Source: Nemertoderma westbladi (taxonomy: Eukaryota; Animalia; Xenacoelomorpha). From it: a DNA stretch of 64,000 nt. The stretch is taken from NCBI GenBank assembly GCA_032718475.1, contig JAUCBJ010008796.1, positions 33,253 through 97,252 on the forward strand. The letters run 5' to 3'. Made by a program: the position numbers and the translations under genes. The first letter of the stretch is position 1, and every line of letters begins with the position of its first letter. The notes beneath the pieces were generated by a model, which did not search any database, was not told where the DNA came from, and saw only the letters and a program-made list of their open reading frames with translations. Positions 1 through 48,832 of the stretch are shown here, one piece after another.

Positions 1-30
1 AACTGCTAAAGGTCTTCAAAAGCGCGAACA
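1..30 (+). repeat. 3' end of the 5' LTR
   Basis: Identical to 18829-18858 and ends in ...AACA; the two copies diverge immediately after it. Confidence 0.9.
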
Positions 31-43: not shown

Positions 44-95
44 ATCTTATTGCAGTAAGCAATAAGGTTGCAAATACCGTAGTGACCGGTAACCT

Positions 96-2282: not shown

Positions 2283-2732
2283 ATGTCTGACACTCAGCAA
2301 AACCTGTCAGACAGTCTGATCGATACAACTATCTGTGACTCAGATAGGAGTGTGGAGCGATTAAGAAAGGAGTTCAGCTCACCTCCTACTGCAAAAAAGG
2401 TCATCCCTCCAGTAGTATCAGACCCTAGGCTAATCCACCATAGGTCCATCATAGGCACTCGGGCACAGGTCAAACGGAACCAAGAGGCAGTTGTCCTATC
2501 GCAGCAGCATCTTGGTCAAGACCCTACTTCCCAGCGACCCGATAGCTCCAGTAGTTCGGATACTGTAGAGCTGACCCCCGAACGCGGAGTGCAGATGGCT
2601 GCTACAGTCTACTCGGACCCCCTTCTCACCCTTCCTGCTGCAGTCTACTCGGACCCCCTTCTCACCCTTCCTGCTGCAGTTAACTATATTCATTGCGGTG
2701 GAGGAACATCAAGCCGACTGGGCGAGAAATAA
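2283..2732 (+). CDS. Short upstream ORF overlapping gag-pol in a different frame; possible frameshifted gag N-terminus or uORF
   Basis: ATG-initiated 149 aa, S/P-rich, with an in-frame 36-bp duplication (about 2605-2679). The gag-pol frame is open from 2575 and lies +1 relative to this ORF. Confidence 0.45.
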   Translation: MSDTQQNLSDSLIDTTICDSDRSVERLRKEFSSPPTAKKVIPPVVSDPRLIHHRSIIGTRAQVKRNQEAVVLSQQHLGQDPTSQRPDSSSSSDTVELTPERGVQMAATVYSDPLLTLPAAVYSDPLLTLPAAVNYIHCGGGTSSRLGEK

Positions 2733-5700
2733 GCGAGCGACCCAAGATAATTATGCGGGATACGCCAGGGAAGAATTAATGTCTATTGTCGAGTCACAAT
2801 GGAACTTTCCCGGACTCGGACTCCCGTTGGACCTGTCCGAGGCTACTTGGGAAGATATACACAGGATGGGAGTGGCAAAAGATACAATGGATCCAGCTGT
2901 TTGGAAGAGGTCGGCATCAGGATATGTGCAGGGATTCTTCGGCTCCTTGGAGCGATTGGAAGAACAACTGTTTCGACAACCTCAAGGACCTCAAGAGCAG
3001 GAAGAGCTGCTATACCAAGTACGTGAAAGAACCCTACGCATACGACTAATCCTCTCAGCCTTTGAGGAAACTTCCAAAAGAAGACAGGACACGTCGCTGC
3101 AGGTTGCTGTCAAAACTTGGTTACATCGGGTAGATCTCCAAGTACAGGAAACGGCCCAGTGGAAATCCCAGCTGGCTGAGAGATCAACCTATGAAGAACA
3201 AACTGATGTCACCCTTTCTCAAGCGGAAAGCGAAGAGACCGCCGAGAAACCGCGAACTAGAGACGCTATCGACATTTATTTGTCCGACTATCAGCGATTC
3301 CTAGGAGACGAAGAGTTGAGTAGACGGCTGTCTGGACTTTCCCCTAATAGTGAAGGAACCAAGCTTGTGTTGGACTCAATCGATGCCGAAATGTTAGCTG
3401 CAAACCAAGCTGAATGTGATGAAAAACTCCGCCTCACTAGAGTCCGAGAAGAACAAGTAAAGAAAGAATGGATAGAGAAAAGAAAGGTGGCAGCAGCAGC
3501 GGCGGCAGAAGCAGAAGCCAAAAGAAAGGCGGCAGAAGCAGAAGCCGAAAGAAAGGCGGCAGAAGCAGAAGCCGAAAGAAAGTCAGCAGAAGCAGAAGCC
3601 GAAGCCGAAAGAAAGGCGGCAGAAGCAGAAGCAGAAAGAAAAGCAGCAGTGGCAGAAGCAGAAAGTAGAGCTTCTGAGGAGACTATCCAATTGGAGTTGA
3701 AAAATCTGCAAGAGACGCAAGACAGTATAAATAAACAGTTTACTGCTAATCAAATGCAGATGATGAGAAAATCTACTCCCAAGCGCCAGGGATACACATC
3801 CTCGGAGGAAGGCGAGACTACCGATCCTGAAGGCGGAGGAAATAGATCTCATCTAAGTAGGCGTAGAAAAACATCTTACCGCCGCAAATTGCCTGATTTG
3901 CCCCCAGCTGTTAGAAGACAGCTAGCTAGCACAGACTTGAGTAGTATAGAACCCACAGCCCAAAGTATTAAGGTCCAAAGACTCTCTACAATAGTTGATG
4001 AGCCTGAGATAATTAGGCCTGTCGTTCCCAAGGTCACTTCTGTGTTAGAGACCCCTGTACTTCCAGAGCTTAACTCTAAATTCCCTTTACATAGTACTAC
4101 ACTGCCTGTACCCGGTGGAACAGTCCAAGAGAATATCCCTGTCCAGATAGCAGAGAGAGAAATCAAAAATTTGTCTCCCGTCGTCCCGCGTCAGCCCGCT
4201 ACTATGTTGGCGACTCCCGCTTCGGCGGTTGAGTGGGTGGAAGAGGGACGGCGGGGGATGAATCTCCTGCTAGGACAAATGCAGGAGACTGTCCACCAAC
4301 TTAAGGGAACAGTGAGAGAAGGCAGAGCAGAGTTGCAAGAAGTGCAGCAAAGTATCGCACTAGAACGCGATAAATTAGTCAATATACAAAGGGGCATACC
4401 AATACCCCCTGTAACATTGTGTCAACCTGTTAGGTCTGAAGTATTACATGCGCAAGGTGTGGAGCCTACACGCATCTATACTGCTAGTGAAGTTGAAACT
4501 CCTATAACAAACCCTATTAAGGGTGATTATAGACCTGTTATTAATGATATTCCCTATAGACCTGATAATGATCCGAGAAATTTATATACCGATAATTCGA
4601 TATTAAATAACACGATGGCCCAAGAAAGCTTTACGCGTCAGATGGCTAGAACAGAAGCCCGCCAAGCGGTCAAAGTGGGAGAGATCGTCAAATTCAATGG
4701 AGATGAGATGAAATGGTTACCTTTCAACGAATATTACAAAGATAGCATACAGAACTCTGTACTATCTAACGGAGAGAAACTTAGATTCCTCATCAAGTGC
4801 TTGGAAGGACCTCCCAAGTTAATGGCGTTAAAGTTTATTGGACATCCAGATGGGTTAAGACAAGTTTGGGATACATTAAACATCAGGTATGGTAACAAGG
4901 ATAACATAGCTAAGTATTTGTATGCAAAATTAGTAGCCCCTCGACACTTCCTTAGTAGCGGGATTATAGAGTTTTCCGATGAGATTCAAGAGATCTGTAG
5001 ACAATTGGACTGGTTAGGTAAGTCTCATGAATATCAGAGTTCCATGGTTATTGGAGCCGTAGTCTCTACTTTACCAAAGGGTGGAGTATGTACACGCTGG
5101 GACAAGAAAGTGTTGTACATGAATGAACAACAACGACGAAGTCCTACCATGGCTGATCTCATGTCTTTCTTAGATGGTGAAGTCAAACTACAACTCATCA
5201 AGCAGTCCAGAGAAAAAACATCGGAAAATAAGGTAAGTGAGAAACCCACTTCTAGGAGAAGGGTAACACCGGTGTGTTACACTGACGACGGCGAAAGCCA
5301 AGCTTCTCAAGAAGAAGACAGCGGGAAAGACACCGAACGTTCTTACTATGTTGACAAAACCTCCAAGGACGTAAGTAAATACAAGGCTCGAACCAACAAT
5401 AGGAGAGAACAGGTTGCTAAGACCCCTCCTCAGTCTCCTAGCAGAATGCGCGGAAGAAAGCCCGAAGAAAGAACGAGAGTGCATCAGACTACCCAAGGTA
5501 AAGTAAGTAACATAAAACCTAACTGTGCGCTGTGCGACGGGACCCACCGTTTGAGTGCGTGTGCGGAATTTCTAAAGAAATCCCTTGTAGACAGACGTAC
5601 AGTTGTGTGGGACAAGCGGTTATGCTATAATTGCCTCAGACCAGGACACCAACGGCGAACCTGTTACTCCGACATAAAGTGTGAAAAGTGTGGTGCGAAA

Positions 5701-8700
5701 CATCACATCTTGTTACATAGTGAGTTCGAACGAGACAAGCAGAGTCAGGTAAGTGAGTCCGAACTACATGTCCAATTCAGTGATGTAAACGACACTGATC
5801 AGGAGTCTGAGATGGAAGGGTTCTATACTGACGAATTCTCCGACGCCAATGAATCCTGTTATCTAATAAATACCGCGGTGTATCGAGCACTTACTTACGA
5901 AAAGGACATCAACGATGAGTTTTCCCCAACTAATTTCGCCAAACAACCATCTTGGAAAGCTCCAGCTTCCAACGTAGGAATCAGAGAATTTCCTGTAGTT
6001 CAGGTAAGAGTTCACGGTCTTAACAAAAGCTACATAGTGAATGCCCTCCTGGACTCCGGCAGCACAGGAACATTCATCGATCAAGAACTAGCCGAAGATA
6101 TCTTTGCTGGACAACCCAAGTTCCGGACTAAATTGAATATGTCAGGAATTATGCAGGTTTGGAAATCTACCCTAACGGCAGATTACTATGTAGGTGTGTT
6201 GTCCACCCCCCAGGATAAGTTAGGAACACAAGGCATAAGGTCAGTAAAAATGGTGGCTATAAAGAACTTTGCTACTACTCAAGCAGACCTTTATAATTGG
6301 GACGAAGATGAGAGCGTCCAACATCTGAAGATACCTCGATTCCAGACAGATTATCCTGGAGTGCAAATACTTATCGGCCAAAACGCGCACGAGGCGCTCG
6401 AAACATTAGAGAAACGGCCTGCTCAACCACAACCACTGCAAACCTATGCGGTAAGAACTAGAGTAGGTTGGTACTTTACTGGCCCTTCCCGTAGAACTCT
6501 CGAAGAGAGAATGCCACACGAACAAATATATCAAGGAAGTGATTGGGAAGTGGAAAGCAGTGAGGTGGACGAACTAACTGAGGGAACACCATACTCCTCA
6601 GATAATGACGACATCTACCAACTCTTCGAAGAAGAGAACACAATTGACCTACTTACAGAGAATCAAACTTGGAAAAACCAAACGAACCTATGTCAACTGA
6701 TTCGCCCAACGGAATCCATTATTTATAATGACGAACTTAATGACGAGGTAGAGCGCTACAACGCTAGAACTCGGGACGAACTCGCCGTACGATTCTTTAC
6801 CCAAGAATTAGTAGAACCCAATTCATACGACAAAGCCCTGTCAATAGAAGAAGAAAGAGCCAAGCAAATCCAGGAAACAACCACACGTTTTTTAAAAGAT
6901 CAAGGTAGATATGAAATCGGACTACCCTTCCGAAAACGTGAACCCAGATTTATAAATAACAGACCCTTGGCTGAGAAAAGAATCAATCAATTACATCGAC
7001 GTCTTACGGCAAACACTTCAGCTAAGGAAATGTACCAAACTCAGTTGAAGAAATTTATCACAAAGGGATATGCGGAGCGAGTACCGGAAGGAACTCCAAT
7101 AACTGAAAGAACTTATTATCTAACACATCATTACGTTCCCAAGCCCGGTAAACCCCATGAAGTACGAGTCGTATTCGATGGCTCTGCTCTATATATGGGC
7201 CAATCCCTTAATTCCGAGTTGTTACCAGGACCCAATTTACTACAATCTTTGTTGGGAATACTTTTGAGATTAAGACAATATTCCATCGCGTTCGCTTCTG
7301 ATATCGAAGGAATGTTCTTACAAGTCAAGGCGCTGGAGAGAGATAGAGACATCCTGAGATTTCTGTGGTGGCCTGAAGGAGACCTCAACCAGAAACCGGT
7401 GGAGTACTGGATGACCATCCAGGCTTTTGGGATCATATCTAGCCCTTCCAATGCCTGCTCCGTGGTGCGAACCACTGCGAATGACAACCGAGACTCCTTC
7501 TCCAAAGAAGTGATAGACAACATAAAACGCAATATATACATGGACGACAATTTAAGGTCCCTTCCATCAGTAGAAGAAGCCATAGCTGTCGCGAAAGGAA
7601 CGGTAGAGTGTTTGAAAAGAGGTGGATTTCGACTGACGAAATTCACTAGTAACTCCCGTGAGTTTCTGGAAGCCATACCGGTAGAGGATCGCGGAGCGAA
7701 AGACCTAGACTTAATAAAAGACGATCTTCCTGAAACCAAGACGCTAGGCTTGAAGTGGGACACGGAAAGAGATATCCTGTTTTTTCAGCTAAAACAGCGA
7801 GATAATCCAGTTCGGACCAAACGGATTTGTTTAAGTATCCTGAGCACTTATTTCGACCCATTGGGATTTATTAGCCCAGTTATATTGATTGCTCGGAGTT
7901 TAGTACAACAAATGTGGCTTGAAAACCACTCGTGGGACGATCCCCTCAAGGGAGAATTATTAAAGAAATGGATGAAATGGGAGGACTCGCTACCTGCTAT
8001 CGAGAACTTTATAATTTCCCGTTCATATTTTGGTCATGTTCTCCCTACGTATTCCTATCAACTCCATGTATTTGGAGATGCCAGCGATATGGGAATCGGT
8101 ATAGTAGCATACCTGCGAGTCGAAACTCCGGATGGAATCAAAGTTGCCTTGGTTACCTCTAAGGCATTGATTAACAACAAGCTTAAGGTTCCTCGGGCGG
8201 AGTTAAAAGCAGCCTTATACGCTACAGCTATCGGCCGGAATGTAACGGAACAGATCGATTATCCACTGGAGAAAACTGTTTATTGGACCGACGCTTTACT
8301 TGTGTTGGAATATATAACCAATGAAGTCTGTCAGTTCAGCGTCTTTGTTACTAACAGAGTGGCCATTATTCTTAGTCGCACAACGATAGATCAATGGAGA
8401 CATTGCCCTGGTACGATTAACCCAGCTGACATCGCCTCCAGAGGAGCAACTCAACAGGAACTGATAGATACCCCTGACTGGTTGTGTGGACCCGACTTCC
8501 TGAGCAAGGAAGAGGATGAATGGCCTCCTCACCTTACTACGGCTGAGATTAGACAAGCCAAGGGAGCGGAGAAAGTCAAACCCAAAATTAGAACAAGTAA
8601 ATCGAAATTATTTAAACCGACAATCGATCTATCTGTATTACATACTGCCGAAAACGATACTTCGGATCCACAATCCCTCGCCACAAACAAGTCTGTTGTG

Positions 8701-10359
8701 GAAATTAGAGACAGAGATTGGAAATCTGAGATACCAGATGTCTCGCAAGGAATCTCACCCCTGCTGCAGAGAGCACTGCATCATTACAGTTCCTGGAATC
8801 GTCTCTGTAAAGCCATCACATACTTAAAGAGATGTTTTCACCATCATTACTCCAGGAAGCAGACCACTAGTGATCCTGCTCCAGTAACATCTGCGCAAGT
8901 TTATGTTATTAAAGATCTACCGAAGTACAAGATATCAGACCGGTTTCTAAAGGAGAAGATCAGTTACCAGGAGCATGAAGAAACTAATAAGCAGCTACTG
9001 AGACTCCTGCAATGCTATGAGGATTCCGATAGGTACTTTCTGTTGTTGAGAAATCCGCAGATGCGCTTAAGGGATCGCTTCTCTAGCACAATGATAGATG
9101 GGTTAATACGTGTTGGAGGAAGGCTTACAAACGCCCCATTATCCTTTGATACTAAATTCCCTATACTCATTAGTAATCTTGAAGTACAAATCAAGATGAT
9201 TGTAGATGTTCACAGTAAACTGTATCATGCTGGTAGAGAACGAGTTCTTAGCGAAATTCGAACCCGCTATTATTTTCATAAACCGCGTAGAGCTCTGAAT
9301 CAAGTTCTTAGGAACTGCATACCTTGTAGGAAAGTATTCAGTAGGCCTTTAACACAGCGAGAGGCAGAATTACCTATGGAACGAGTAAGCTTTTATGAAC
9401 CACCCTTTACTAATACTGGTGTGGATTTATTTGGCCCTATTGAAGTGTATCGTGCTAGAACTATAATCAAGAGATGGTGTGTAATCTTTGTCTGCATGAC
9501 TTGTAGAGCTATCCATCTCGATATGGTGAACGATCTATCTACTAACAGCTTCGTCTTATGTTTACGACGACAGATCGCTCGTTTCGGCACTAGCAATACG
9601 ATGAGATCCGATAAGGGAACGAACTTCATTGGTGCCAACAACGAAATTCAGGCTTACGTAAAGGACTGGAATCAAAGACAGGTGGACGACCAGCTACGGA
9701 TAACGGCGTCTAGCTGGACCTTTAACGCCGCCGACGCCCCTTGGTGGGGAGGAAGTTGGGAGAGATTAATTCGAAGTGTCAAGACCACATTTCACTTTAT
9801 AGTGCCGTGCCGCGCATATCTCACCGACGAACTTCTACGGACGTTAATGGAGGAAATCGCTGCCTATCTTAACGAGAGACCGCTTATGCCAGTCTCATCG
9901 AGTCCCGACTCCCTGGAAGCGCTAACACCCGCGCACTTCCTACTTAAAAAACCTGTAGCCATGCTCCCACAATCCGAGATTGCCGATGGGGATGAATACT
10001 GTCGTCGAACTTGGCAGCTTATGCAGTTGCTATCCCGTCGTTTCGCTGACCATTTTGAGAAACATTATCTGCCCACGCTACAACTTCGAACTAAGTGGTT
10101 TGCGCAGCAGGAAAATGTCAGCGCCGGAGACATGGTCCTTATTGTAGATCCGGACCTTCCACGTAGACGGTGGCAGATCGGTCGTATCATCGAGACGCAC
10201 ATCTCGGAGGATGGTCTAGTGCGCTCAGTAGAACTCGTCGTAATGCGGCGTAATTTCAAGAAACCCGGTACCCAAGGAGGTGAGGTCTCTATAGGGGTGC
10301 CGGGAACAGGCGGCGGTGGACTCGTGAGGGTCTGGGGGCACGTTAAATCTTTCTTATAG
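2698..10359 (+). CDS. Bel/Pao Gag-Pol polyprotein (coiled coil, DUF1759-like gag, zinc knuckles, aspartic protease, RT, RNase H, integrase); the final 27 or so codons come from an insertion
   Basis: EAERKAA repeats; KFNGDEMKW gag motif (~4690); CALCDGTHRLSAC, CYNCLRPGHQRRTC and CEKCGAKHHILLH (5524-5718); ALLDSGS (~6043); YMDD (7537); FGDAS (8071); NPADIASRG; H-x4-H...CIPC; GVDLFGP, SDKGTNF and WERLI integrase core. The track starts at GTG; the first ATG is at 2779. Confidence 0.96.
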   Translation: MEEHQADWARNKRATQDNYAGYAREELMSIVESQWNFPGLGLPLDLSEATWEDIHRMGVAKDTMDPAVWKRSASGYVQGFFGSLERLEEQLFRQPQGPQEQEELLYQVRERTLRIRLILSAFEETSKRRQDTSLQVAVKTWLHRVDLQVQETAQWKSQLAERSTYEEQTDVTLSQAESEETAEKPRTRDAIDIYLSDYQRFLGDEELSRRLSGLSPNSEGTKLVLDSIDAEMLAANQAECDEKLRLTRVREEQVKKEWIEKRKVAAAAAAEAEAKRKAAEAEAERKAAEAEAERKSAEAEAEAERKAAEAEAERKAAVAEAESRASEETIQLELKNLQETQDSINKQFTANQMQMMRKSTPKRQGYTSSEEGETTDPEGGGNRSHLSRRRKTSYRRKLPDLPPAVRRQLASTDLSSIEPTAQSIKVQRLSTIVDEPEIIRPVVPKVTSVLETPVLPELNSKFPLHSTTLPVPGGTVQENIPVQIAEREIKNLSPVVPRQPATMLATPASAVEWVEEGRRGMNLLLGQMQETVHQLKGTVREGRAELQEVQQSIALERDKLVNIQRGIPIPPVTLCQPVRSEVLHAQGVEPTRIYTASEVETPITNPIKGDYRPVINDIPYRPDNDPRNLYTDNSILNNTMAQESFTRQMARTEARQAVKVGEIVKFNGDEMKWLPFNEYYKDSIQNSVLSNGEKLRFLIKCLEGPPKLMALKFIGHPDGLRQVWDTLNIRYGNKDNIAKYLYAKLVAPRHFLSSGIIEFSDEIQEICRQLDWLGKSHEYQSSMVIGAVVSTLPKGGVCTRWDKKVLYMNEQQRRSPTMADLMSFLDGEVKLQLIKQSREKTSENKVSEKPTSRRRVTPVCYTDDGESQASQEEDSGKDTERSYYVDKTSKDVSKYKARTNNRREQVAKTPPQSPSRMRGRKPEERTRVHQTTQGKVSNIKPNCALCDGTHRLSACAEFLKKSLVDRRTVVWDKRLCYNCLRPGHQRRTCYSDIKCEKCGAKHHILLHSEFERDKQSQVSESELHVQFSDVNDTDQESEMEGFYTDEFSDANESCYLINTAVYRALTYEKDINDEFSPTNFAKQPSWKAPASNVGIREFPVVQVRVHGLNKSYIVNALLDSGSTGTFIDQELAEDIFAGQPKFRTKLNMSGIMQVWKSTLTADYYVGVLSTPQDKLGTQGIRSVKMVAIKNFATTQADLYNWDEDESVQHLKIPRFQTDYPGVQILIGQNAHEALETLEKRPAQPQPLQTYAVRTRVGWYFTGPSRRTLEERMPHEQIYQGSDWEVESSEVDELTEGTPYSSDNDDIYQLFEEENTIDLLTENQTWKNQTNLCQLIRPTESIIYNDELNDEVERYNARTRDELAVRFFTQELVEPNSYDKALSIEEERAKQIQETTTRFLKDQGRYEIGLPFRKREPRFINNRPLAEKRINQLHRRLTANTSAKEMYQTQLKKFITKGYAERVPEGTPITERTYYLTHHYVPKPGKPHEVRVVFDGSALYMGQSLNSELLPGPNLLQSLLGILLRLRQYSIAFASDIEGMFLQVKALERDRDILRFLWWPEGDLNQKPVEYWMTIQAFGIISSPSNACSVVRTTANDNRDSFSKEVIDNIKRNIYMDDNLRSLPSVEEAIAVAKGTVECLKRGGFRLTKFTSNSREFLEAIPVEDRGAKDLDLIKDDLPETKTLGLKWDTERDILFFQLKQRDNPVRTKRICLSILSTYFDPLGFISPVILIARSLVQQMWLENHSWDDPLKGELLKKWMKWEDSLPAIENFIISRSYFGHVLPTYSYQLHVFGDASDMGIGIVAYLRVETPDGIKVALVTSKALINNKLKVPRAELKAALYATAIGRNVTEQIDYPLEKTVYWTDALLVLEYITNEVCQFSVFVTNRVAIILSRTTIDQWRHCPGTINPADIASRGATQQELIDTPDWLCGPDFLSKEEDEWPPHLTTAEIRQAKGAEKVKPKIRTSKSKLFKPTIDLSVLHTAENDTSDPQSLATNKSVVEIRDRDWKSEIPDVSQGISPLLQRALHHYSSWNRLCKAITYLKRCFHHHYSRKQTTSDPAPVTSAQVYVIKDLPKYKISDRFLKEKISYQEHEETNKQLLRLLQCYEDSDRYFLLLRNPQMRLRDRFSSTMIDGLIRVGGRLTNAPLSFDTKFPILISNLEVQIKMIVDVHSKLYHAGRERVLSEIRTRYYFHKPRRALNQVLRNCIPCRKVFSRPLTQREAELPMERVSFYEPPFTNTGVDLFGPIEVYRARTIIKRWCVIFVCMTCRAIHLDMVNDLSTNSFVLCLRRQIARFGTSNTMRSDKGTNFIGANNEIQAYVKDWNQRQVDDQLRITASSWTFNAADAPWWGGSWERLIRSVKTTFHFIVPCRAYLTDELLRTLMEEIAAYLNERPLMPVSSSPDSLEALTPAHFLLKKPVAMLPQSEIADGDEYCRRTWQLMQLLSRRFADHFEKHYLPTLQLRTKWFAQQENVSAGDMVLIVDPDLPRRRWQIGRIIETHISEDGLVRSVELVVMRRNFKKPGTQGGEVSIGVPGTGGGGLVRVWGHVKSFL

Positions 10360-13272: not shown

Positions 13273-13315
13273 AAATATTAACTCATATTGATATTAATAA
13301 ACTCAGATAACAGAT

Positions 13316-16300
13316 ATGACGGAATTGATAGAAGATGACCTTGGTATCAGGGAGCGATATACTCTACCTTTACAAGCGTTTGTGGATAGCTTGATACGCG
13401 GTGAAGCCGATCCGACTATTACGGAGGACGATGGTCGTTATATCGAACCGCCGATGTCCCAGGAACAACTTACGCGTGAATTGGACTATAGAAAATTCAC
13501 CGCTCGCTATACGAATCGTAATGGTACGTATATGGACTTCTTAACTACCGGCCATCCTACCGATTTAAATGATACGGAAGATGTAGACACCGAAAGGGAA
13601 ATGGTTTTATTTAAATATCATGCCCAGCGGAATCGTAATGATAAACCGAGAATAGAACACGAGAACTCTATTCGCAACCTACTCGACAGAGAAAACGTTG
13701 AAGAACCCGATAAGCGCCTCAACTTCAACGACTACTTGGAATTTTTGAGAGAAACCTATCTCAATATTGCCAGTCAACAGAACCTAGAGACTCGATATCC
13801 TCAAGGTATACATCACGATCCCATAGTAGAACTCAAACGACTCTATTTCACCATGATGTATCTTACCGCAGATCGTCCACTGCCTGTTGTCCCGGACAGC
13901 TTTGAACAAATGGAAGAGTATTGCAAAACTGGAGAACGATCACCAGCGTTTCCTCTGCAGGACGTACGTCTTTGGTATTATTGTGACTCATGTCCTAGAC
14001 CTAACCAGCAAACGGAAAGACATAAACATCCGCGGAGACGTTGTGCTAAACACAGTTTTACGCGTTATACTTACGGGAGTTTCGAGCGAAACCTGTTCGA
14101 CGTATCACCTACGATCGCCCGTCTAAAACGATCGCTAAATAAACCTATGATCAGAGTTCCGGAATACTCGGTCAGGCCTCCCCATTTCCCCGTGAGACCT
14201 CAAACTCTTGATCCTAACAGTATCACTGATCCTCCCGAGTTATACTCACTGTTCAAAGATTTGGTGTTACCCGAGCAGTTAATCGGTGGTGTTCCAGCGG
14301 TAGGTTCGTTAGATATTCGACCATCCTATTTAACCGGATTGGGACGCGGGCATCTAACATCGCCATTTAATCCTTACAATCGACCAGGATTAACTCCGAT
14401 ACAACCTGCCACGGAAATCGAGGAGAGTGTCATCAGAAACGCTTTAGACGCCATCCGACAGAAAATCGGAAAGGGAACCCAGGATTTTCTAGAGAAACGT
14501 AAATTACAGCAGCAGGTCCAATCGGTGAAAGAGTTAGCCTTGCCGCAGTTTGATAGAGAAATCCAAAACCTCGAAGAGGACATCGAGCTTGGACATACGT
14601 ATTCTCTACAGGAGTTTCTAGAAGAACGCTTACAGAAACAAGCGGAGGAAAATCAACTAGAGGAGAAACATACGGAAATGGATGAGAGAGAGGAAGCCGC
14701 TTTAGCCCAACCCGAAGCTCAGATACTCATAACCGATCTCTACTCTAAAACCGTCCGTCATCCCTCGATGGTTCCGCATTTCGGAGACAAACTTTTCGCA
14801 AAGATACAACCTCAACCGGTTGATATCGGCATAAGGTCGCAAAATCTTATCGCTGACGCTCCTATGTTACAGCGTCCGCCAATCGAGGCCGCTCGAGTTG
14901 ACGGTATACTCGTTGAACCTCCGGACAATCGAGCGGATCTTGTCCGTCGTATGGTACACGATGTCAACATACGCGCTAGACCTTTACAGAACTCTTTTTA
15001 TGGAATTAAAGATCACCCTTATTACGTTAATCTGACTCAATATTATATGGTAAAACCAGAAGATCCGACGCATAATTTAAAGTTTCTACCACTAATAAAT
15101 CCTCTGGACATTGTCGAACTCGAACAATTGCAAAAACATCTGGATCAGTTAGTAAAGGTAAACTCATTTCGAAAACCATATAACGTTTCTCGAATAGAGA
15201 AGGATACAGAACCTCCTTATAATCTCGATGGATTTATTAAAACTCGATTAGTCCATTGGAATCTAGACGTAATATTCGAGGAGGAGAAAATACAAAGATA
15301 TGGAAATGTGGAGACGTATACCACTCGATACATGAAGTATAGTGATCTCCCTGACGCTAATCAATGCGCCACCTTGTGGCATCCAGTAGGGATGACCCTC
15401 GAGAACGCCACCAAAGAGTGGAATGAAACTCTTAATATCATTGAGATGTATGGCGTTGTTACTTACGATAACGAAGGTAGCATTCCAATCGGAGAATTAG
15501 GAACTACGCGCATGATACACATACGCGGATTAGCTGGTTCCACTCACGTGTTTACGCGAGCGTGTTCCGACGTGGTCGATTATTCCTTTGAAACTCTCAC
15601 CGAAACGCAAAAGAATCTCCGACATGGACAATTCGAACTCGCGCAGCGTTACGTCATTGACACCGAACGCAAACCGGCCATGGGTATCGATGGATCGATG
15701 TTACCCCAGCCCGTTCTCGAGATGTTATTCAACGAAAGAATCATTAAAATCGGCTCAGCTGTTTACGGGGATCTCCAAAACGACTTTCGGAATATGGAAA
15801 ATATCCCCTATCCTTTCGTGGATACTCAGCTGATAGCTCCTTGGGCCGAAGGCCGAGGTTTCTTTCGCACCATGTATGCTAATGCGTCTAGCAACGTTAC
15901 AAAGGTGCAACGAACTTCCATCGGACATCTTGCCTTTCAGGAATACGGATGTAATTTCAAGGTCGGAAATCCCATCAACTATCAACAAGTATACGGAGAC
16001 CATTATTCTCGATTATACTTTGACGGACCGTTGACCGCACCTGGCGCCGTGTATAGCTTCATGAGTGTTCCACTCCGTCCCTCCTTAGCTATCTACACGA
16101 TCTTCGAAAACACCGCACTTTCCGGTTGGCTAGCCGATGTGTGCAGTCGTACTATACGCGCCCATCCATTAATCCTTGGGACCAAACTCGCTAAGCTAGA
16201 TGAACATAATAAATTCATCCGCTTTGAATGTTTCCGACGGTTTTTAACCCCGTTTCGCAACGTGGATAGCCAATTCAAAGACCGCGCTTTGACCAAGCTC

Positions 16301-17569
16301 AGCTTAAGAGACTCGGCTGCGGAGAAGTTAGATAGCGCTGGATTTGCTATTTTCAAAGACGTTTGTATAATAAACCTGCACTCCTCGGTTATCCAAAGAC
16401 CTCGGATCCCCACAGGTTATTCTGTCGTGGAAATTCAGACGGTAGGTCCACTTGAGGAGACGGCCATGCCTACCTCAACTATACAAGGGGAAGACGAACC
16501 CATATGTTTAGAATCTGAAGAGATTCAGCCCCCCACGTCTCGGAGTAGCGATAGCGACTACATATTGGAATGGTATCAAGGTCCACAGTGTCTTACTGCG
16601 TATGATTATCGCCATGCCAATTATGTTTCTCGACAACGTTGTCGGCTGTGCGCATCGAGAGACCATATTACGTCTATGGACACCAACGATCTCTGTTCCT
16701 ATTTCCACGAGCAACCGTCGATGGAAATCTATTGTGCATATTGTCGGCTTAATAATTTGCATATTTTTGCTGTCTGCCCCCAATTTATGACTCAATGCCA
16801 TCATTGTCAATTAAAAGGACACGCCAGCTTTGATTGTCCATTTAATCATGATTTAGAGAGCGTAGATGAAATGATTGTACTACGTTATATCAGAGCTTGG
16901 GAAGCGAACGCTGATTTACATTGTGATTCACGCCATCGCTATTACCCTGGACGCGCTTACGAAGGAGTTTATGCGTTCCATCCTTATTTGTTTGCCTCCG
17001 TCGAGCAGAAATCACGCCTATCAAGTTATGAACTACTGAAGCGCGTTGGAGAATGTATTTCAACCAAATATGTACGCAAATTTCTCAGGAGCATTAATCC
17101 GAGTGACATCAATTCTTACAACTTAATAAACTTTATCCGTCAAGATCCGGACTATGGAGACTTATTTGTCAACTCATACCCCGAGTTACAGGAAGTGTAT
17201 CGACGGCCTTACGAGTATCGAGCCCGCGAACGCGAGTTGGAAAGAACCATTAAACCAAGGAAGTTTCTAACTACCTATGGTCCACCCACGGCCCTCGTTC
17301 AGACCACTCGTAAAGGACCCGTAAGAGCGGCTGTCTTGAAACGAGCTCTCAAAGCCGTTAGACCCCTCTCCCCGGACGTTGATGTCAATCGACCCGGTAC
17401 TTCGACCGGCGGATATACCGATCGTAATCCCATACCTTCTGATGCAATCATATTGCACCCTTCACCCAGGAGTTATAGCCCTCCTTGTAAAGTGGCTCGC
17501 CCCAAAGAGAAAAGGACTCTTGCTAGCTTTAAAAAACTGCGTAAACGCCGTCCGCGCAAGAAAGACTAA
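13316..17569 (+). CDS. Retrotransposon accessory ORF2: DEDDy-like 3'-5' exonuclease domain, three CCHC-type zinc knuckles, N-terminal Cys/His motif, basic C-terminal tail
   Basis: Uninterrupted 1417 aa inside the LTRs. ExoI VVTYDNEG (D718/E720); LPQPVLEMLFNERIIKIGSAVYGDL (ExoII D819); FVDTQ; SIGHLA; PLRPSLAIYTIFE (Y927/E931, ExoIII-like). Knuckles CRLCASRDH..C, CAYCRLNNLHIFAVC and CHHCQLKGHASFDC; ends KKLRKRRPRKKD. Confidence 0.85.
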   Translation: MTELIEDDLGIRERYTLPLQAFVDSLIRGEADPTITEDDGRYIEPPMSQEQLTRELDYRKFTARYTNRNGTYMDFLTTGHPTDLNDTEDVDTEREMVLFKYHAQRNRNDKPRIEHENSIRNLLDRENVEEPDKRLNFNDYLEFLRETYLNIASQQNLETRYPQGIHHDPIVELKRLYFTMMYLTADRPLPVVPDSFEQMEEYCKTGERSPAFPLQDVRLWYYCDSCPRPNQQTERHKHPRRRCAKHSFTRYTYGSFERNLFDVSPTIARLKRSLNKPMIRVPEYSVRPPHFPVRPQTLDPNSITDPPELYSLFKDLVLPEQLIGGVPAVGSLDIRPSYLTGLGRGHLTSPFNPYNRPGLTPIQPATEIEESVIRNALDAIRQKIGKGTQDFLEKRKLQQQVQSVKELALPQFDREIQNLEEDIELGHTYSLQEFLEERLQKQAEENQLEEKHTEMDEREEAALAQPEAQILITDLYSKTVRHPSMVPHFGDKLFAKIQPQPVDIGIRSQNLIADAPMLQRPPIEAARVDGILVEPPDNRADLVRRMVHDVNIRARPLQNSFYGIKDHPYYVNLTQYYMVKPEDPTHNLKFLPLINPLDIVELEQLQKHLDQLVKVNSFRKPYNVSRIEKDTEPPYNLDGFIKTRLVHWNLDVIFEEEKIQRYGNVETYTTRYMKYSDLPDANQCATLWHPVGMTLENATKEWNETLNIIEMYGVVTYDNEGSIPIGELGTTRMIHIRGLAGSTHVFTRACSDVVDYSFETLTETQKNLRHGQFELAQRYVIDTERKPAMGIDGSMLPQPVLEMLFNERIIKIGSAVYGDLQNDFRNMENIPYPFVDTQLIAPWAEGRGFFRTMYANASSNVTKVQRTSIGHLAFQEYGCNFKVGNPINYQQVYGDHYSRLYFDGPLTAPGAVYSFMSVPLRPSLAIYTIFENTALSGWLADVCSRTIRAHPLILGTKLAKLDEHNKFIRFECFRRFLTPFRNVDSQFKDRALTKLSLRDSAAEKLDSAGFAIFKDVCIINLHSSVIQRPRIPTGYSVVEIQTVGPLEETAMPTSTIQGEDEPICLESEEIQPPTSRSSDSDYILEWYQGPQCLTAYDYRHANYVSRQRCRLCASRDHITSMDTNDLCSYFHEQPSMEIYCAYCRLNNLHIFAVCPQFMTQCHHCQLKGHASFDCPFNHDLESVDEMIVLRYIRAWEANADLHCDSRHRYYPGRAYEGVYAFHPYLFASVEQKSRLSSYELLKRVGECISTKYVRKFLRSINPSDINSYNLINFIRQDPDYGDLFVNSYPELQEVYRRPYEYRARERELERTIKPRKFLTTYGPPTALVQTTRKGPVRAAVLKRALKAVRPLSPDVDVNRPGTSTGGYTDRNPIPSDAIILHPSPRSYSPPCKVARPKEKRTLASFKKLRKRRPRKKD

Positions 17570-17639
17570 CTGTTTAGAGTATTTTTATATTTTAGAAACT
17601 GTGATTTTGTATATTTTATAGACTTAAATCCCATTTTCT

Positions 17640-17647
17640 GGGAGCGG
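17640..17647 (+). promoter_or_regulatory. Short polypurine tract
   Basis: gggagcgg directly precedes the TGT start of the 3' LTR. Confidence 0.6.
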
Positions 17648-18858
17648 TGTAAAAGCTTTTGTGGGATAACTGATTCGTTTGCCTTGCTGGCCAGTTCCCC
17701 CCCGGTCGCTAGAATACTCTAAAAGGGATCTATAGGTAAAATAGTGCAAGCTACCAGCTTATTGGCTGATGTGCTGTACTGAGGTATCTGGGTTCCGTTT
17801 AATCGGCCAACCAGCTTAGAGAGGTTGCCTTAGCCCTGCTGTCCGTATCGGCCAATAGAATTTGAGTGGGCGTTGATTTCGACCTATCCCAGAGCTACTG
17901 AACTGAATTTTCCTATCTCACTGCTCATCCTCTGTGTTGGACGGGAGCTTCGGGGAATAAGGGTAGTTGGTATCCTCGTATAGGGATTCTAGTCTTATGA
18001 TTCTTCATATGATTCTGTTGTTGTGTTCCCATTTTTCGCCATAACACCGGCTTTTGGGAAGAACTCTAGTAAAACTGCTTAAATTATCGAAGGTATAAAC
18101 TGTTATCCTATCAACCTACCATCCTACCTACTAATCAATCAATCAACCTGATTCTGTTGCTAATCATATTGTTTGTACTGTTATTTACCGTCAGTTATTA
18201 ATTGTATCTATTTGTTGATGGAAATATTGCTCTTTGGAGAATACGGATAAATCACCCAAATTTCCCAATTTTCTTGATACACTACAGGTTAGAGAGACAG
18301 GCTATATATAACAATTGCGATTTATATTAATGTGGTGTGTATTGAATCTAATGTTATTTAGCAGACCCTACATGAGTCAATTGCTGCTCTCTTTATGTGT
18401 GATCAAATTTACTGACGGTCGGCAGAATAGTGTGCATGATTGTAATTGATAACAAAGTATTTCCTAAAGAATACGCTTTATACTTTAATCATAAGCAGTA
18501 TCGTTGCGTTTAGTATAAGTCCTAGTCCTGTTTAAATAGATAGAGCGCCACGTCCTAAAGGAACTGTTAATATTTCCCGAAAGCCAATAATATCTGTCAG
18601 AAATTAATTAATAACGATCAATCGAATAATACAGTAAGTTTACACTGCAACCTTACACTGCAATAATAAAATTTAAGCAGCCGAATTCAGCCTCCCGGGT
18701 GTAGATCCATCGGGTGAATGATCGCGCATGGGCTGTCTTCGGGTAATGTTTTGTTTAATAGCATAAAATATTGTCGTATGCTAAAGGTGTTTTAATTAAC
18801 TAGAAGACATATAAATTTTGGCAGGTTGAACTGCTAAAGGTCTTCAAAAGCGCGAACA
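17648..18858 (+). repeat. 3' LTR (1211 bp)
   Basis: Termini TGTaaaaGCTTTTG ... CAAAAGCgcgaACA form an imperfect inverted repeat. The end matches bases 1-30. CCAAT-like boxes at ~17761 and ~17852; AATAAA at 18665. Confidence 0.85.
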
Positions 18859-26025: not shown

Positions 26026-26503
26026 GTTTGAAAACCATAACAACAATAAATGATATGGTACTGTTCTTGTGCGAGATATACGAGCAAAAATTGTAGCAAT
26101 ACAGAATTAAACTAATTATTTTATTTATTTTAAATTTTTTTCTCTATTTAGACTTATGTGGATATTAGTAGTATAATATGTAAAGTATAATATACTACTA
26201 GGATCGGCATGCTACATTGCAGCTGTATTTTTAAGAATGCTGTGCCGGTATATTAAGTATAATATAGTAAGTAATTATAATATAATATTTTATAATAAAA
26301 TTATATTTTGAAAATCTAATCTTAGGTTGATCGAAATATATTTTTGACAGACCAATATCAAGCAAGTAAAATTAATTGGAAACAGAGAAACAACATGTTG
26401 CTATCTGTTCAACTGTAAGTAGTCATCATTTTGTTTAAGCAGGGACACGAAGTGCAACCCTGTTTAAATACTGTAAGTAAAATTATCACATTGGTTACAT
26501 TTT

Positions 26504-26545
26504 TGCATACGTGTTTCGCCGGGATTTGGCTCATCAGCTACACTA
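26504..26545 (-). ncRNA. Minimal type I hammerhead ribozyme core (possibly degenerate)
   Basis: The minus strand reads tgtag CTGATGA GCC aaatccc GGC GAAAC ac GTA tgca. The core and stem II are good; stem I is imperfect. Confidence 0.55.
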
Positions 26546-26670
26546 ACCCGTGCATGCCACATGTTAATCCAACTAACTACACCTAAATCCAGCTAAATAC
26601 ACACACATACATATAAACAAAATAGCATAACATATTTGTTGGCCATAGCTTTTTCAAATTCGGCAATGAT

Positions 26671-26733
26671 GTCCAGGTGGGATCAAACTGGTGACCTCCG
26701 AGTTGGAAGTCTGACGCTCTAACCATTCAGCTA
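26671..26733 (-). mobile_element. tRNA-derived SINE head
   Basis: Minus strand TAGCTGAATGGTTAGAGCG (A box) ... AGTTTGATCCC (degenerate B box); no intact acceptor stem. Confidence 0.7.
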
Positions 26734-26740
26734 GTTTTGG

Positions 26741-29700
26741 ATGAACAACATGTGGAGATCTTACGTGCAGCGGAGGCGAGAAAGGATGCCGAGTGAGAAG
26801 AGGAGCGCAGTCGCAGAGTTGAGGCAAAACTGCAGGAGTTGGAAGACACACGTAAGCGCAAGGAACTCAAACGCGAACGCAAAGAACGCGAACACAAACA
26901 TAGGAAACTCGAATGCGAATTCGAAAGTGAAGAACGCAACGCAAGGAATGTGAACTTGAACACGAATGGGAAGAATGCGAACTTGAACTCTAACGCGAAC
27001 GTGAAGAACACAAACGCGAGGATAGGCAGATACAATGCAAAATTGAACATGAGCGTGAGCGACGATTGCTACGTGAGGAACAAGTGAACTTGAAGGCAGA
27101 AACCACTGCGAGAATTGCTAAGAAAGTAGAACAACGACAGTTAGCCAAACTAGAAAGTGTGAGGTTAGACTAGACTTAGACAAGTACTCCGATCGCGAAA
27201 CCGTTTTCTGCATATCGCATACCTGTTGGTATTAGTGCCTCACTGATTGCACAAGGTCTGCGCTATCAAGAGGATGCTTCAAGGTTAGAATATTACTGCG
27301 ACTCAGACGAGATGATAGAAGAAACTCCAAGAGGACAAAGATTGGACAAACCAAAACCAAGGGTTTGGAATCTGCCAATGGATTATGTCAGACCAGTTCG
27401 AGAGAAAACTTCCGAGTTAAACCGGAGGAAGGATCTTATGAAAGGAAACATCTTAGCCAAATAGAGCCAACAACAAAATTGAGTCAGGAATTTGTCACAA
27501 GAGAGAAGATGAGCGCTGGTATAGTGCAAGCTATAGCCCCGCACATCCAACCTATTACGGATATACTAAGCAACCTACAACTGATATATGCTGCTCAACT
27601 AAAGACTGATTTTAATCCGAGTAGACAAGAACAAGGTAGAGCCCAGTCTGGTGCACGAGTATGTATATCGGAGGCACAATTCTACAAAGACCTCAGGTAA
27701 GGACACCTGTTCCTACAATTTACAATCCCGATTTCTTGCACTCGGATGAAAGATTTATAGAAGGGGCTTGGATTAGAGCTTCAGGCTGTAAACCACTTCG
27801 AGATCAGGTAAGCAGTAGTGACTCGAGTGAGGAAGGCGAAGATTTAAGATGGCAGAAATCCTATAACCGGAAGGGAGGAAGAACAATAGTCGAGCAGGTG
27901 AGTTAAACCCATGGGTGGGGGCCAAACTCGACAACCCTGCAGAGTTGACTAACTTATTAACTAGGAATTATGCCACCCTCAGGGACATTGGTAAGTTTGC
28001 CGCCAGGCAGGGATTGCTGGCGCAACAACCCCAAAAGTTTATGGGCAACCATAAACATTGGAGGAAGTTTAACACTTATGTCAATGAGCAGTTAACAAAC
28101 AGTACCTTTACCCCCAATGAAAAATTAAATTACTTATTGCAAATGCTCCATCGTGAGCCAAGAGCCATTGCTGACAATTTCGTTGGAAACAAAAGGGCAT
28201 CTGAACTAACAATGAGACCCTTAGCGACATCTATGGGAATAAGACCAAAATGGCACAATCAATAGTAGAGGATTTGGGGAAAGGTGGAAAAATCACAACA
28301 CCTTTAGAACTGTTAAACTTGGCCAATGCCATTTCAAATGCCTTAGATATTTTAAAAACAGTGAATTTACCACACCATGGTGATCACGCTGAGGTTTTAA
28401 AGAGTATAATAAGACGCCTGAACATGTGTTATCAGCAAAAATGGCGAAAATTAGAGAACAGGTTGGAGGGTCAGGATAAGGTGTTAACACTAAGACATAT
28501 TCATGATATGACAGCTAAGTCAAACTTCTCAGAAGTGAATATGAGAGAAACTAAACCTGCTTTGGGAAGGTCTATGGTAAGTTTCAATGAAGACAAACAG
28601 ACTGTGACATTTAACTCGGTAGATAAATAGCGGAACAATAAATGGAGCGGAACAGCTGATCACACACCAAATATGGGAAACAAGACCAGCCGAGCCTTAT
28701 GTCAATTTGCCACACGCCCACAGGACTATATTGGGTTGGTATACACGGCACACGCGTACCTATCGCATATGAGTTCCCAAGTGGCGACAAGCTAATCGAT
28801 GTATACGATGACTCGCAAACTATACCTCAGACAGCACCTAACCCATGCAATTCCGTAGAACAAATGGATATAGACAATTTCAGAAGAACCTGTATCGATC
28901 ATTACAGTGATTTTAGCAAATCAGAGGAAGAGTTATATCCTGGTAATGTGAAATTGTCAGAACCACTCTATAATGATCGAACAGACAGTGAACTCAAGGA
29001 CTACTGTTATCAGACCCGTGGGTCTGGTTCAGTAGCTCACTTGACATACTTAAGTAACGTCATCACATATACCAACAAAGTTGAAGGTCAGGTGGCGAAA
29101 TATCGAGACCTCGATATTTTTCAATTAAGCAAAGAAGAATTGAATAAAGAACAGATTCGTCAAGACCTTGTGATGGGAGCTAGGACTATAGAATGGTTAA
29201 ACAAGGATGCAATGGAACCTGGATGATACGATGTGACCATATCTGCAGACAAGAAGAGATCTATAGAGATAATGGAAGATACTATACATCTTTTGCCAAG
29301 CGGACATTTTGAGGTCCAAATGTTGTGGCATCAACAGCCTCTAAAATTAGAAAATAATTACAGCCTGCCATTAAAACAATTGACTGGGGTGAGGGTGCGG
29401 CTGTTAAGGAATCAGGACATGAAGGAGAAATATTGCACTCAGATAAACAATTATCTGACAAAGGGATTCGCCGGAAAGGTAGAGAACCCAGAGATTGAGT
29501 CCAACCAGACTTATCTCCCACATCACTACGTAACCTATCCAGATAAACCTAACAAAGTCCGCATAGTAAATGATTACGCTTCAGTTTATAAGGGTATGTC
29601 CTTAAACTCGGAACTTATGGACAGTCCCAATCTGAATAACTATTTAATCGGGATATTGGTAAGCTTCAGACAGCACCGATTTGCATTTACATGCGACATT

Positions 29701-31640
29701 GAGGCAATGTTTCATCAAGTGCGAGCCTGCAAGGCTGATCAGGACAGCCTCAGATTTCTCTGGTATGAGAACGAAGACTTATCAGGTCCAGTGGTTACAT
29801 ACCAGATGTATGTTAGGATATTCAGTGCTCGCAACAGCCCAAACGGCATATTATTTGTTCTAAAGAAGACCGCAATGGCCCAAATTGGGAATTATCCGGC
29901 TGATGTCATTGAGTCGATCCTTAAGAACTTCTATATGGATGACGGATTAGTTTCCACGATTCGTAGATTAACTAATATATATAAAGTAACCGAAGTTATT
30001 TATATATTGGAGGATATTTAAAGGACAATAATGAAGGGATATATCCCTGAAGAGCCATGGAGAAGGTGAACCACAAAGGAGGATGCAGCACTGCCATTCG
30101 CCCGCCATGGCAACATTTATTACCATCAGCGATCTGTGGTGGAGCTAAACACAGAAATAAACACAATTATGACAAGGGTATGAGAAAGGAGAGGTTAAAG
30201 GCGGTGGAAGATAGGATGGAAGTGTTGAGGCGGGAGTATAGAAGTCAATATCCGTATGATTTCACTGCAGATATATATGATATAAGCGTAAACCCTGGTG
30301 AAGAGATTGCAAAGATGTATCATATGAACATGTTCTTATCACATGATGAACCCTTATCTGCCATAAGTGACCATTTCGATGGAATGCATTTGTATAGAAG
30401 GACGCGATGAGATGACGAGGAAATGCCAAAGGTCTTTAGCGTGTATAAATTGTTCTATAAGTGCTGTGAATGCATGAACAAACAAGATGTTTCCATTCGT
30501 GATTGTGTGAATGAAGAAAGACCCGACCCAATATTGACACGGTGTAAAGCACATCAATTCCTCAGGAACAACAAAGGAGGATATTCAATGAGTAATCCGA
30601 TGATAACCATAGATTTCAGCAGAAAGAAGCCACCAGCGCCTATTACACCAAGGATTACGACTCCGGATCCTTATAGTGAGATTGGAACTCGTACTACTTC
30701 TGCTTTAGTGGAAATGACTGCTGCCATGTTGCTTTATCGAGCGTATAAAGATTTGGAGGCGCAACGCGAAGCTGCACAGGACTCGGGAACATAACCCACG
30801 GGTTGGGAACTCTCGAGTCCTTGGTCAACTTTCGATCCACAACCTCCAGATAGAAAGCTCACGCATGAGCATCAGGATGAGATAGAGGCATTACAGCAAG
30901 AAGAACAAGCGGTGAAGGTGAAAAAGCTTTTCAAGAAACGATTAGTCGAGTACAACAGGAATGCAGAGAGACGCCAAGGAGAGGTAGTGAGAGTCATGGG
31001 GTTCGTCCCACAAGCTATATCTCAACCTAAACCAACGCCAATGGAGAAGGATGGAGGAGTCGTTGGAGGATTGGAAATTAATGTTCTATGATAATGAAGG
31101 AGGGTCACACCAGGAATGTTTGACCAGCAAGTGTATCCAGATCTGGGTGGCCGATGGTGTAACTCATGTGTTCATGCGCATGAGGGCGGACGGAGATAGA
31201 CCAGAGCTGATTATAACGACCCAATAAAGAAGGGGAAAGGACCCGAGAGAGCAGATTTTGAAAGTGTGTAGACGCGGAGGGATGCATGGAGCAGAGAGGA
31301 TAGATGCGAGGATGTTGCCTAAGAAGGTTAGGGAGGCGATATTAAACCAGGATTATGTGAAGGTAGAATCAGGTGTCCAGAGCGATTTGGAGAGCGATTT
31401 TAACGCTATGGAGGACCCGGAAGACCGGCTACCGAGACCCTTCGTCAACACAAAACTATTATTGTTATGGTCGCAGGATGTTAGGATATACAGGGAATAT
31501 CCTATGTCAGCTAAGACTGGTATGGGTGTTTTATAGCGCACCCATTATATAATTGGGATTTTAAATTAAAGCCGCAGAAGAAGTATGAGGAGGCATATGG
31601 TAAGAATACAGCTACATCAACGATTAAATTAGAGCCCTTT
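26741..31640 (+). mobile_element. Degenerate, internally deleted second Bel/Pao element with an ORF2 homologue
   Basis: Coiled-coil and gag fragments (KFMGNHKHWRKF...EKLNYL); RT fragment YLPHH...KVRIVND...DIEAMF...FYMDD (29233-29950); then an abrupt junction to ORF2-like sequence. Many stops and frameshifts; LTRs not recognised. Confidence 0.88.
30180..31640 (+). pseudogene. Pseudogenised homologue of the exonuclease ORF2
   Basis: NPGEEIAKMYHMNMFLSHDEPL, LFYKCCEC..RCKAHQF, FYDNEG (31084-31101), GVTHVF and IDARMLPKKVREAILNQDYVKVESGVQSDLESDFNAME..PFVNT align in order to ORF2 at 13316-17569. Confidence 0.85.
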
Positions 31641-32689
31641 TCACCAGACAAATGAATTAAAGGAAGTGAATCCACTTTGGCATCCGATGAGTCGGATAGC
31701 TGGAAAAGGGGGCACAAAAAAACAAGTAACACGCGAACCGAGTTCAGAAGAACTTGTAAAAAAAACTACAAGTAATTCTAATTCAATGCAGATATGTTTT
31801 GGATTTGTCATTCTTGTATTTCTTATTGTATTTACAGAGGTTCAAATAGGTTGGTGCACAATGTCTCTTTATGGACAACATAATGAGATAGAAGCAAAAT
31901 TTGTTAAACAACAAGCCGAACAATAGGAGTTATTGATGCACCAGGATAAAGAATGAGATTGTTAGGGCACAGTGTAGTCTAGTGCATCCAGATGTAGATA
32001 GAATAATGAATAAACAGTAGGAAGTTCAGAAACTAATAGAGGAAAGTTTGAGTTTATAGTTTATATGATCAATGCAAGTCATGTATGTAACTGGAATTGA
32101 ACCTTGGAAAAAGTCCAAGTTGTGGTCCATGGTTTTTAAGAAGAAGATGAAACTATGGATAAGTATCATGTATTCATGGCAGTATTTGGAGATCCAAGAA
32201 AAGAGTTTTGGATAGGTTTAGATGTAATACATCAGGCAACAGAAAAACTCTCTTGAACTTGAACTTGAAATTTATTTGCCATATAGACAGAATATACGTA
32301 AGTGTTGCAAAGCACCCCAACACCAAAGATTTTACCGAAATCATGGAGTGAGTGGGTGAGAGTATGATATGTCTATGATGGCCTGGATGGCAGCTAATAG
32401 CATTGCTAGTAAGAGCTACCACCCAGAAAGTGAGCAAATGCATGATGCTGAATATGTGCAAAGAAGTAATGAGGGGTGGGTGTAGGGGGAGGGTGGGGTG
32501 GTTAGGGGAGACCTGTCAGCAAAAAAAGAAATTAATCGATTTCAACTTTATATTATAATATAGTAGAATTATTTAGAATAATGTTGAACGGACGCAATAG
32601 AGAGACTAAAGATTTTAATAAAGAGTGTATGTATATACTAAACTTTAAATTATACACTGTTTGTATGTAAACTGTAGCTACCGTATAAA

Positions 32690-48774: not shown

Positions 48775-48832
48775 ATTACATGTTTTATTGGACTTTCGCC
48801 CAACAACTAGTTGATCTACTTACACCTGTAAA

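Follow-up and report, generated by a model that had tools for sequence, protein, structure and literature searches.

A homologue of a Bel/Pao accessory ORF for a predicted exonuclease lies beside a second, degenerate Bel/Pao element in Nemertoderma westbladi

The two Bel/Pao elements of the window

The window, a stretch of 64,000 nt of Nemertoderma westbladi DNA (GCA_032718475.1, contig JAUCBJ010008796.1, positions 33,253-97,252 of the forward strand), was found to hold two Bel/Pao elements: element 1 at 1-18858, and element 2, a second and degenerate element at about 26.7-31.6 kb (Table 1). Element 1 is about 20 kb long, with 17,617 nt of internal sequence and LTRs of 1.2 kb. Its ORF1 reads in the order DUF1759 gag, LLDSG protease, YMDD RT, RNase H, integrase, DUF5641, and four Pfam families scored above cut-off: Peptidase_A17 (E 4e-36), DUF5641 (3e-19), DUF1759 (1e-11) and Integrase_H2C2 (4e-7). 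Direct LTRs around the genes (30 nt of the 5' copy in the window), gag followed by PR-RT-RH-IN, and Pao-type domains identify element 1 as a member of Belpaoviridae, whose ICTV profile lists LTRs, gag-pol, the same domain order and Pao-specific Pfam families (PMC8742986). That profile gives a size of 4.2-10 kb and gag, pol and env-like genes only (PMC8742986), whereas element 1 reaches twice the upper figure, in a trait that is descriptive and not defining, and carries an extra ORF that is not env-like. Further criteria of the family are a primer-binding site for tRNA-Arg or tRNA-Gly and a polypurine tract; 7 of the 12 nt just before the 3' LTR are purines, and ARAGORN found no tRNA gene within the window.

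The layout of element 1 also includes a 2.2-kb leader and a 2.9-kb spacer separating pol from ORF2. A 151-codon frame with an early Met (2277-2732) overlaps the start of ORF1 in a different frame, and a short tandem duplication lies beside it near 2600-2680. Within 10230-11700, the pol tail after DGLVRSVE is Gly-rich, an ending that we take to differ from the usual Pao end. A G+C-rich island (0.56-0.59 at 11100-11500) follows the tail and is possibly inserted DNA; 11380-11580 is predicted to fold (z -2.2), and Rfam gave no match in 10300-13400.

Table 1. Features of the two Bel/Pao elements (window coordinates)
Feature	Position	Strand	Basis or remark
Element 1 5' LTR, last 30 nt	1..30	+	30/30 nt identical to 18829-18858; ends CA; window begins inside LTR
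Element 1 ORF1, gag-pol, 2594 aa stop to stop	2575..10359	+	Pfam and motif order
Element 1 ORF2, 1422 open codons, first Met 13316	13301..17569	+	between pol and 3' LTR
ORF2 N-terminal Cys/His signature C228-x2-C231-x16-C248-x2-H251, predicted zinc site	13982..14053	+	4/4 residues kept in element 2
ORF2 predicted DEDDy-type 3'-5' exonuclease domain: D723, E725, D824, probably Y932/E936	15413..16108	+	profile, Atlas, alignment
ORF2 tandem Cys/His knuckles, aa 1114-1183, nucleocapsid-like	16640..16849	+	Pfam, profile A2
Element 1 3' LTR, about 1211 nt, TG...CA	17648..18858	+	end fixed by repeat; start is our reading
Element 2 gag fragment, matching ORF1 688-757	27981..28190	+	tblastn E 1e-7, 31%
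Element 2 short pre-RT piece	28677-28742	+	order of element 1
Element 2 RT fragment, stopping just past YMDD (29932)	29134..29955	+	E 2e-48, 38%; 97 identities, 40%
Element 2 homologue of ORF2 ~144-310	30210..30680	+	Cys/His signature C 30462, C 30471, C 30543, H 30552; one in-frame stop
Element 2 linker-like segment, weakly similar to ORF2 278-310	30588..30900	+	score 46; no third-position bias among copies
Element 2 nuclease block, matching ORF2 705-872	31036..31542	+	YDNEG and Exo II Asp; one in-frame stop; middle aligns poorly
Element 2 last homologous piece, matching ORF2 877-899, other frame	31530..31601	+	weak alone; support from P0004

In element 2, gag and RT were recognised as Pao-type by comparison with element 1 (E-values in Table 1); Pfam gave no match to the RT piece alone, no LTR of element 2 was found in the window, and RNase H and integrase are missing from this copy. 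Gag, RT, the Cys/His block and the nuclease block lie on one strand and in the order of element 1. The distances between them are 487 nt from gag to RT (1566 nt in element 1), 255 nt from RT residue 1662 to ORF2 residue 144 (6170 nt) and 356 nt for the linker (1185 nt); since these spacings are all shorter than in element 1, element 2 has presumably undergone internal deletions.

Upstream of element 2, 26300-26735 is very highly repeated. Within it, 26670-26735 resembles antisense tRNA-derived sequence by eye, uncalled by ARAGORN or Rfam, and the Rfam search of 26200-26900 gave a chance-level match only. A candidate 5' LTR of element 2 at 26312-26632 was dropped, as it has no second copy in the window. 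After element 2, 31770-32260 contains a broken fibrinogen C-like piece (32050-32260; Pfam E 0.016) together with a hydrophobic stretch; these represent either a host pseudogene or further cargo. Elsewhere in the window, an intact 1309-codon ORF of a non-LTR retrotransposon (48815-52744) encodes an RT and, at its N-terminus, a protease of the Ulp1 (SUMO) type (Pfam E 3e-12); Ulp1 occurs in NeSL-type elements. Decayed LINE-type elements with RT matches lie at 32712-36172 (-) and 60441-61439 (-), and MITE-like sequences with long terminal inverted repeats at 20079-20673, 45426-46431 and 53276-54385.

ORF2 and its predicted nuclease

No transmembrane segment was found in ORF2, where the highest 19-residue hydropathy is 1.36; ORF2 is therefore not env-like, and an env assignment was ruled out. 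The preliminary description had assigned an exonuclease to it, an identity that now appears likely from three sources. Firstly, the NCBIfam RNase D model TIGR01388 matched ORF2 803-848 with E 0.0014. Secondly, residues 690-1000 were placed by ESM Atlas at 0.92 to a PF01612 cluster (163 common features; PF01612 on 50% of its members), with three unnamed clusters also among the neighbours, which include fungal and plant proteins. Thirdly, PF01612 matched the outside homologue P0004, described below, weakly (E 0.2). All nuclease profile matches, in ORF2 as in P0004, lie below the curated cut-offs, and Pfam recognised no nuclease in ORF2 itself.

The candidate catalytic residues were located by alignment. 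Exo I, D-x-E, corresponds to D723/E725 after a hydrophobic strand, its D and E being invariant in alignment A2, and the YDNEG that contains it is present in both window copies. The Exo II Asp, D824, is invariant in 8 of 8 rows of alignment A5 and falls within the RNase D profile match. For Exo III, the Y-x3-E of P0004 was paired with Y932-x3-E936 by BLAST and with Y918-x3-S922 by MAFFT; the fourth acid of the nuclease is probably E936, following Y932. AlphaFold models were of low confidence (pLDDT 30.6 and 32.0), and fold searches with the second gave an uninformative best Z of 4.1. Searches of PDB sequences returned no match for the nuclease and matched the knuckles alone: the knuckles of profile A2 met HIV-1 nucleocapsid chains at E 0.002-0.004. 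Pfam zf-CCHC_3 was found on the knuckles at E 0.0018, below cut-off. Taken together, these findings make a 3'-5' exonuclease of the RNase D/DEDDy type, with CCHC knuckles behind it, the likely identity of ORF2.

The N-terminal block, C-x2-C-x16/23-C-x2-H, had been suggested to be a conserved domain without a name. Both elements retain it, and no Pfam, NCBIfam or Atlas entry matched it, a blank that is not proof of novelty. At the C-terminus of ORF2 (17530-17569) a basic run, KKLRKRRPRKKD, resembles a nuclear localisation signal, and the end of P0004 is likewise basic.

Homology of the element 2 pieces to ORF2

The preliminary description had proposed that translated pieces behind the RT fragment of element 2 are homologous to ORF2, and a tblastn search of the whole window with ORF2 bore this out. 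Two non-self matches had E <1, all others lying at E > 1: the nuclease block 31036-31542 against ORF2 705-872 (29% identity over 174 columns, E 7e-14) and the Cys/His block 30291-30668 against ORF2 173-306 (25%, E 4e-6). In shuffle controls none of 500 scored as high for either block, the Cys/His block (block A) scoring 111 against a shuffle mean of 38 and maximum of 59, and the nuclease block (block B) 167 against a mean of 36 and maximum of 58. Furthermore, 60 shuffled ORF2s reached at most 28.9 bits against the window, as compared with 68.6 and 42.7 for the real ORF2, and the nuclease block was also recovered without ORF2, by P0004 and by a profile of P0004 and P0005.

All six motif pairs earlier read as colinear with ORF2 were found in place: NPGEE at 30291, LFYKCCEC at 30450, RCKAH at 30540, YDNEG at 31087, THVF at 31162, IDARM at 31300, SDLESDF at 31381, PFVNT at 31438, YNWDFK at 31548 and YEEAYG at 31584. 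The Cys/His and nuclease blocks are significant, but the last pair, YNWDFK..YEEAYG, is weak alone: the 31530-31640 pair was equalled by 34 of 500 shuffles against the whole of ORF2 and by 4 of 2000 within the colinear 70 residues. It is backed by P0004, which joins it to block B with a sum E of 0.002 in the window. A proposed match of 30588-31040 to ORF2 900-1120 was dropped, since 71-265 of 500 shuffles score equally.

The homology of the pieces in 30210-31601 to ORF2 is real. Element 2 retains ORF2 ~144-310 and ~705-899 only, in two frames and with in-frame stops; similarity ends before Exo III, which is wholly absent, and before the knuckles, and Asn stands at the position of ORF2 D839. As blastn of element 1 against element 2 showed no meaningful DNA similarity, element 2 as a recent duplication of element 1 was ruled out. 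With 25-30% identity between the two copies and RTs 40% identical, the gene is old, as had been claimed, and common to two families.

Homologues outside the window

A phmmer search with ORF2 of 1.84 billion representatives gave two matches at E <= 0.001, P0004 (648 aa) and P0005 (575 aa), both whole unnamed ENA proteins on contigs of up to 9-11 kb. Their layout is that of ORF2: a nuclease comes first, then a low-complexity linker, then the Cys/His knuckles and lastly a tail that is conserved, at about 30% identity across the matched stretches. Unlike ORF2, both are without the N-terminal 650 aa and hence without the Cys/His block, so that the gene is modular, and P0005 differs from ORF2 in having a canonical Y-x3-D. 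In trees of two short blocks and four sequences, the two window copies cluster apart from P0004 and P0005 with bootstrap values of 88 and 60; the informative columns that join them number 4 of 4 in one block and none in the other. Word-seeded protein searches covered 7993 and 438 candidates without a match at E <= 0.01, and a profile search returned P0004 alone (1 of 7988 scored). No relative was confirmed in viral contigs, where the RT alignment was also used, or in metagenome contigs, prokaryote genomes and plasmids.

Junction and relatives of element 2 in public runs

Public runs X1, X2, X3 and X5 were searched; X1-X3 derive from two samples, which belong to two studies and of which one may be the source sample. 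Contigs with 0-6 differences bridge the junction of RT and ORF2 homologue (29880/29899-30682/30694) in X1, X2 and X3, and these near-identical spanning contigs in two samples rule out an assembly artefact. Among the run contigs, the link between RT and ORF2 homologue is confined to this allele and absent from every contig of a diverged relative. A 610-nt contig of a relative (X5 record 25) matches 29911-29956 and then continues into other sequence, and 6 contigs of X2 and 4 of X3 depart from the window sequence at 31601. The departures at 29956 and 31601 fit breaks private to this copy of element 2. In X5 record 26, 30588-30716 is placed 216 nt downstream of 31509-31601, i.e. behind the nuclease block, a layout that represents either a tandem unit or a different order.

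Many relatives of the ORF2 homologue, 80-95% alike, were found in these runs. Over 29880-31900, contigs less than 95% alike make up 172 of 192 in X1, 138 of 150 in X2, 145 of 160 in X3 and 4 of 4 in X5; the ORF2 homologue is therefore multi-copy in the second family, summed contig depth being left out as a copy-number measure. Of 236 variants, 40 were listed, and 10 of these 40 lie outside the fixed-frame blocks and are unclassed. Among those listed, 5 of 7 in the nuclease blocks are synonymous, where neutrality would give a share of 0.34 (one-sided p 0.046), both of the two in the Cys/His block are non-synonymous, and 6 of 21 in the linker are synonymous, with no third-position bias. The nuclease-block variants give a hint, not proof, of purifying selection on the nuclease blocks of the second family.

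Comparison with known retroelement exonucleases

Juno and Vesta are Gypsy-like elements. In these bdelloid-rotifer elements a DEDDy exonuclease ORF3 lies downstream of pol; according to Rodriguez, Kenefick and Arkhipova 2017 (PMC5408684), it was gained at least twice and is shared with Athena/Terminon, no exonuclease had previously been reported in retrotransposons, and the role of such cargo has been an open question since 2017. PMC6431247, PMC6338049 and PMC5718144 mention the rotifer cargo again. ORF3 resembles ORF2 in being a separate ORF between pol and the 3' LTR, in place of env, in having a DEDDy domain of RNase D type whose acidic residues are retained, and in having no transmembrane segment; both are known from sequence, with a predicted activity (PMC5408684). 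ORF2 differs from ORF3 in its Bel/Pao carrier, its 1422 aa, its N-terminal C-C-C-H block and its C-terminal knuckles. The acids are D-E-D-E in ORF2 and DEED in ORF3 (PMC5408684).

Among cellular proteins, the PF01612 exonucleases, grouped as in PMC3985635 and PMC5408684 (RNase D, Rrp6, WRN-exo; mut-7/Nibbler, EXD1), share Exo I D-x-E with ORF2. Also shared are the ORF2 stretch LP...L....IIK.G....D, the F-D-T motif and the weak RNase D profile match. ORF2 differs from them in lying below all curated cut-offs and in the knuckles that follow; Pfam found no HRDC domain in it. Of the Bel/Pao papers, PMC3118150, PMC554778 and PMC9094657 mention env-like extras only in their accessible parts, and those of PMC11662393, PMC3985635 and PMC5029228 mention no Bel/Pao exonuclease. 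No Bel/Pao exonuclease cargo was found in the literature searched, which covers older and subscription papers thinly. An exonuclease-like accessory ORF may have been noted in the C. elegans Cer (Bel/Pao) elements around 2000-2001.

Origin of the element 2 homologue

The sequence at 30210-31601 is probably, with some reserve on our part, a broken homologue of ORF2, that is, an accessory gene for a predicted exonuclease of a second multi-copy Bel/Pao family, brought beside the RT by internal deletion. The preliminary description went further and took the gene to define a Bel/Pao sub-lineage, a claim that goes beyond the two families sampled from one genome; one old capture inherited by both families and an exchange between them both fit.

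The strongest alternative, in our judgement unlikely, is that the gene marks no sub-lineage and is a swappable cassette, which two not especially close Bel/Pao families obtained separately from a common pool of retroelement DEDDy ORFs or passed across long ago. The at least two gains of the rotifer ORF in Juno and Vesta, and its presence in Athena, speak for such mobility (PMC5408684), as does the modular gene of the outside homologues, which are without the N-terminal block. The RT identity of 40% is, moreover, below the 45% between the distinct elements Sinbad and Saci-1 (PMC554778). Against this, the window copies are nearest each other among the four sequences and have the N-terminal block, YDNEG and THVF in common; the ORF2 identity of 25-30%, below that of the RTs, fits joint ageing; and a recent exchange would leave DNA similarity, of which blastn found none.

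Alternatively, a different repeat or a host pseudogene might be the source of the ORF2-like pieces, nested insertion and deletion having then joined them to the RT fragment. This we regard as very unlikely: strand and order agree with element 1 across four to five blocks, and the pieces have many diverged relatives, like the gag and RT parts, although no LTR of element 2 was found in the window, the junction is bridged by this allele only and one relative's contig has a different order. The fibrinogen-like pseudogene piece downstream (32050-32260) also favours such joining, as it implies that the region gathers debris. A further alternative sees in the nuclease-knuckle protein chiefly a family of host genes, copied into the elements as a passenger without benefit. 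This is scarcely credible, as ORF2 is open across 1422 codons inside LTRs, catalytic-type residues are kept at 29% identity and nuclease-block variants lean synonymous; in its favour, P0004 and P0005 are complete proteins (648 and 575 aa, with contigs of up to 9-11 kb), and fungal and plant proteins are among the Atlas neighbours.

For the accessory gene of a second Bel/Pao family, as we prefer to read the pieces, we infer that both families kept it from one old capture because it is useful to them.

Proposed function and significance

For the ORF2 product we predict a two-metal 3'-5' exonuclease of the RNase D/DEDDy type, linked to knuckles of nucleocapsid kind and to a zinc site near the N-terminus. 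Through its knuckles the enzyme would be kept on the RNA or single-stranded cDNA of the element itself, and there it may trim or clean 3' ends while the genome of about 20 kb is reverse-transcribed. This role is put forward tentatively, as a possibility to be weighed and not as the expected outcome, because nucleocapsid-like knuckles suggest RNA binding and the element is unusually long. Only a little less probable is a role of ORF2 against small-RNA silencing, which may be considered because the cellular relatives mut-7 and EXD1 act in small-RNA pathways (PMC5408684). RNA binding without catalysis seems improbable. Similarly doubtful is the broadest proposal, in which giant Bel/Pao elements of about 20 kb would form an old clade defined by an exonuclease of their own, equipped with nucleocapsid-like knuckles and, at its N-terminus, a zinc domain not described before. 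By editing reverse-transcription intermediates, this predicted enzyme would permit a genome of twice the size usual for the family. Reverse transcriptases are without proofreading, and large nidoviruses possess a proofreading ExoN, which the putative editing by a Bel/Pao exonuclease would parallel.

In conclusion, an intact 1422-codon example in a different superfamily, and a second family in which the same residues are kept at about 29% identity, show that this cargo is old and not a rotifer oddity. ORF2 offers a defined domain, with four residues, for assay, and the second copy makes ORF2 a family instead of a single odd ORF and marks the residues that matter, including those of the unnamed Cys/His block.
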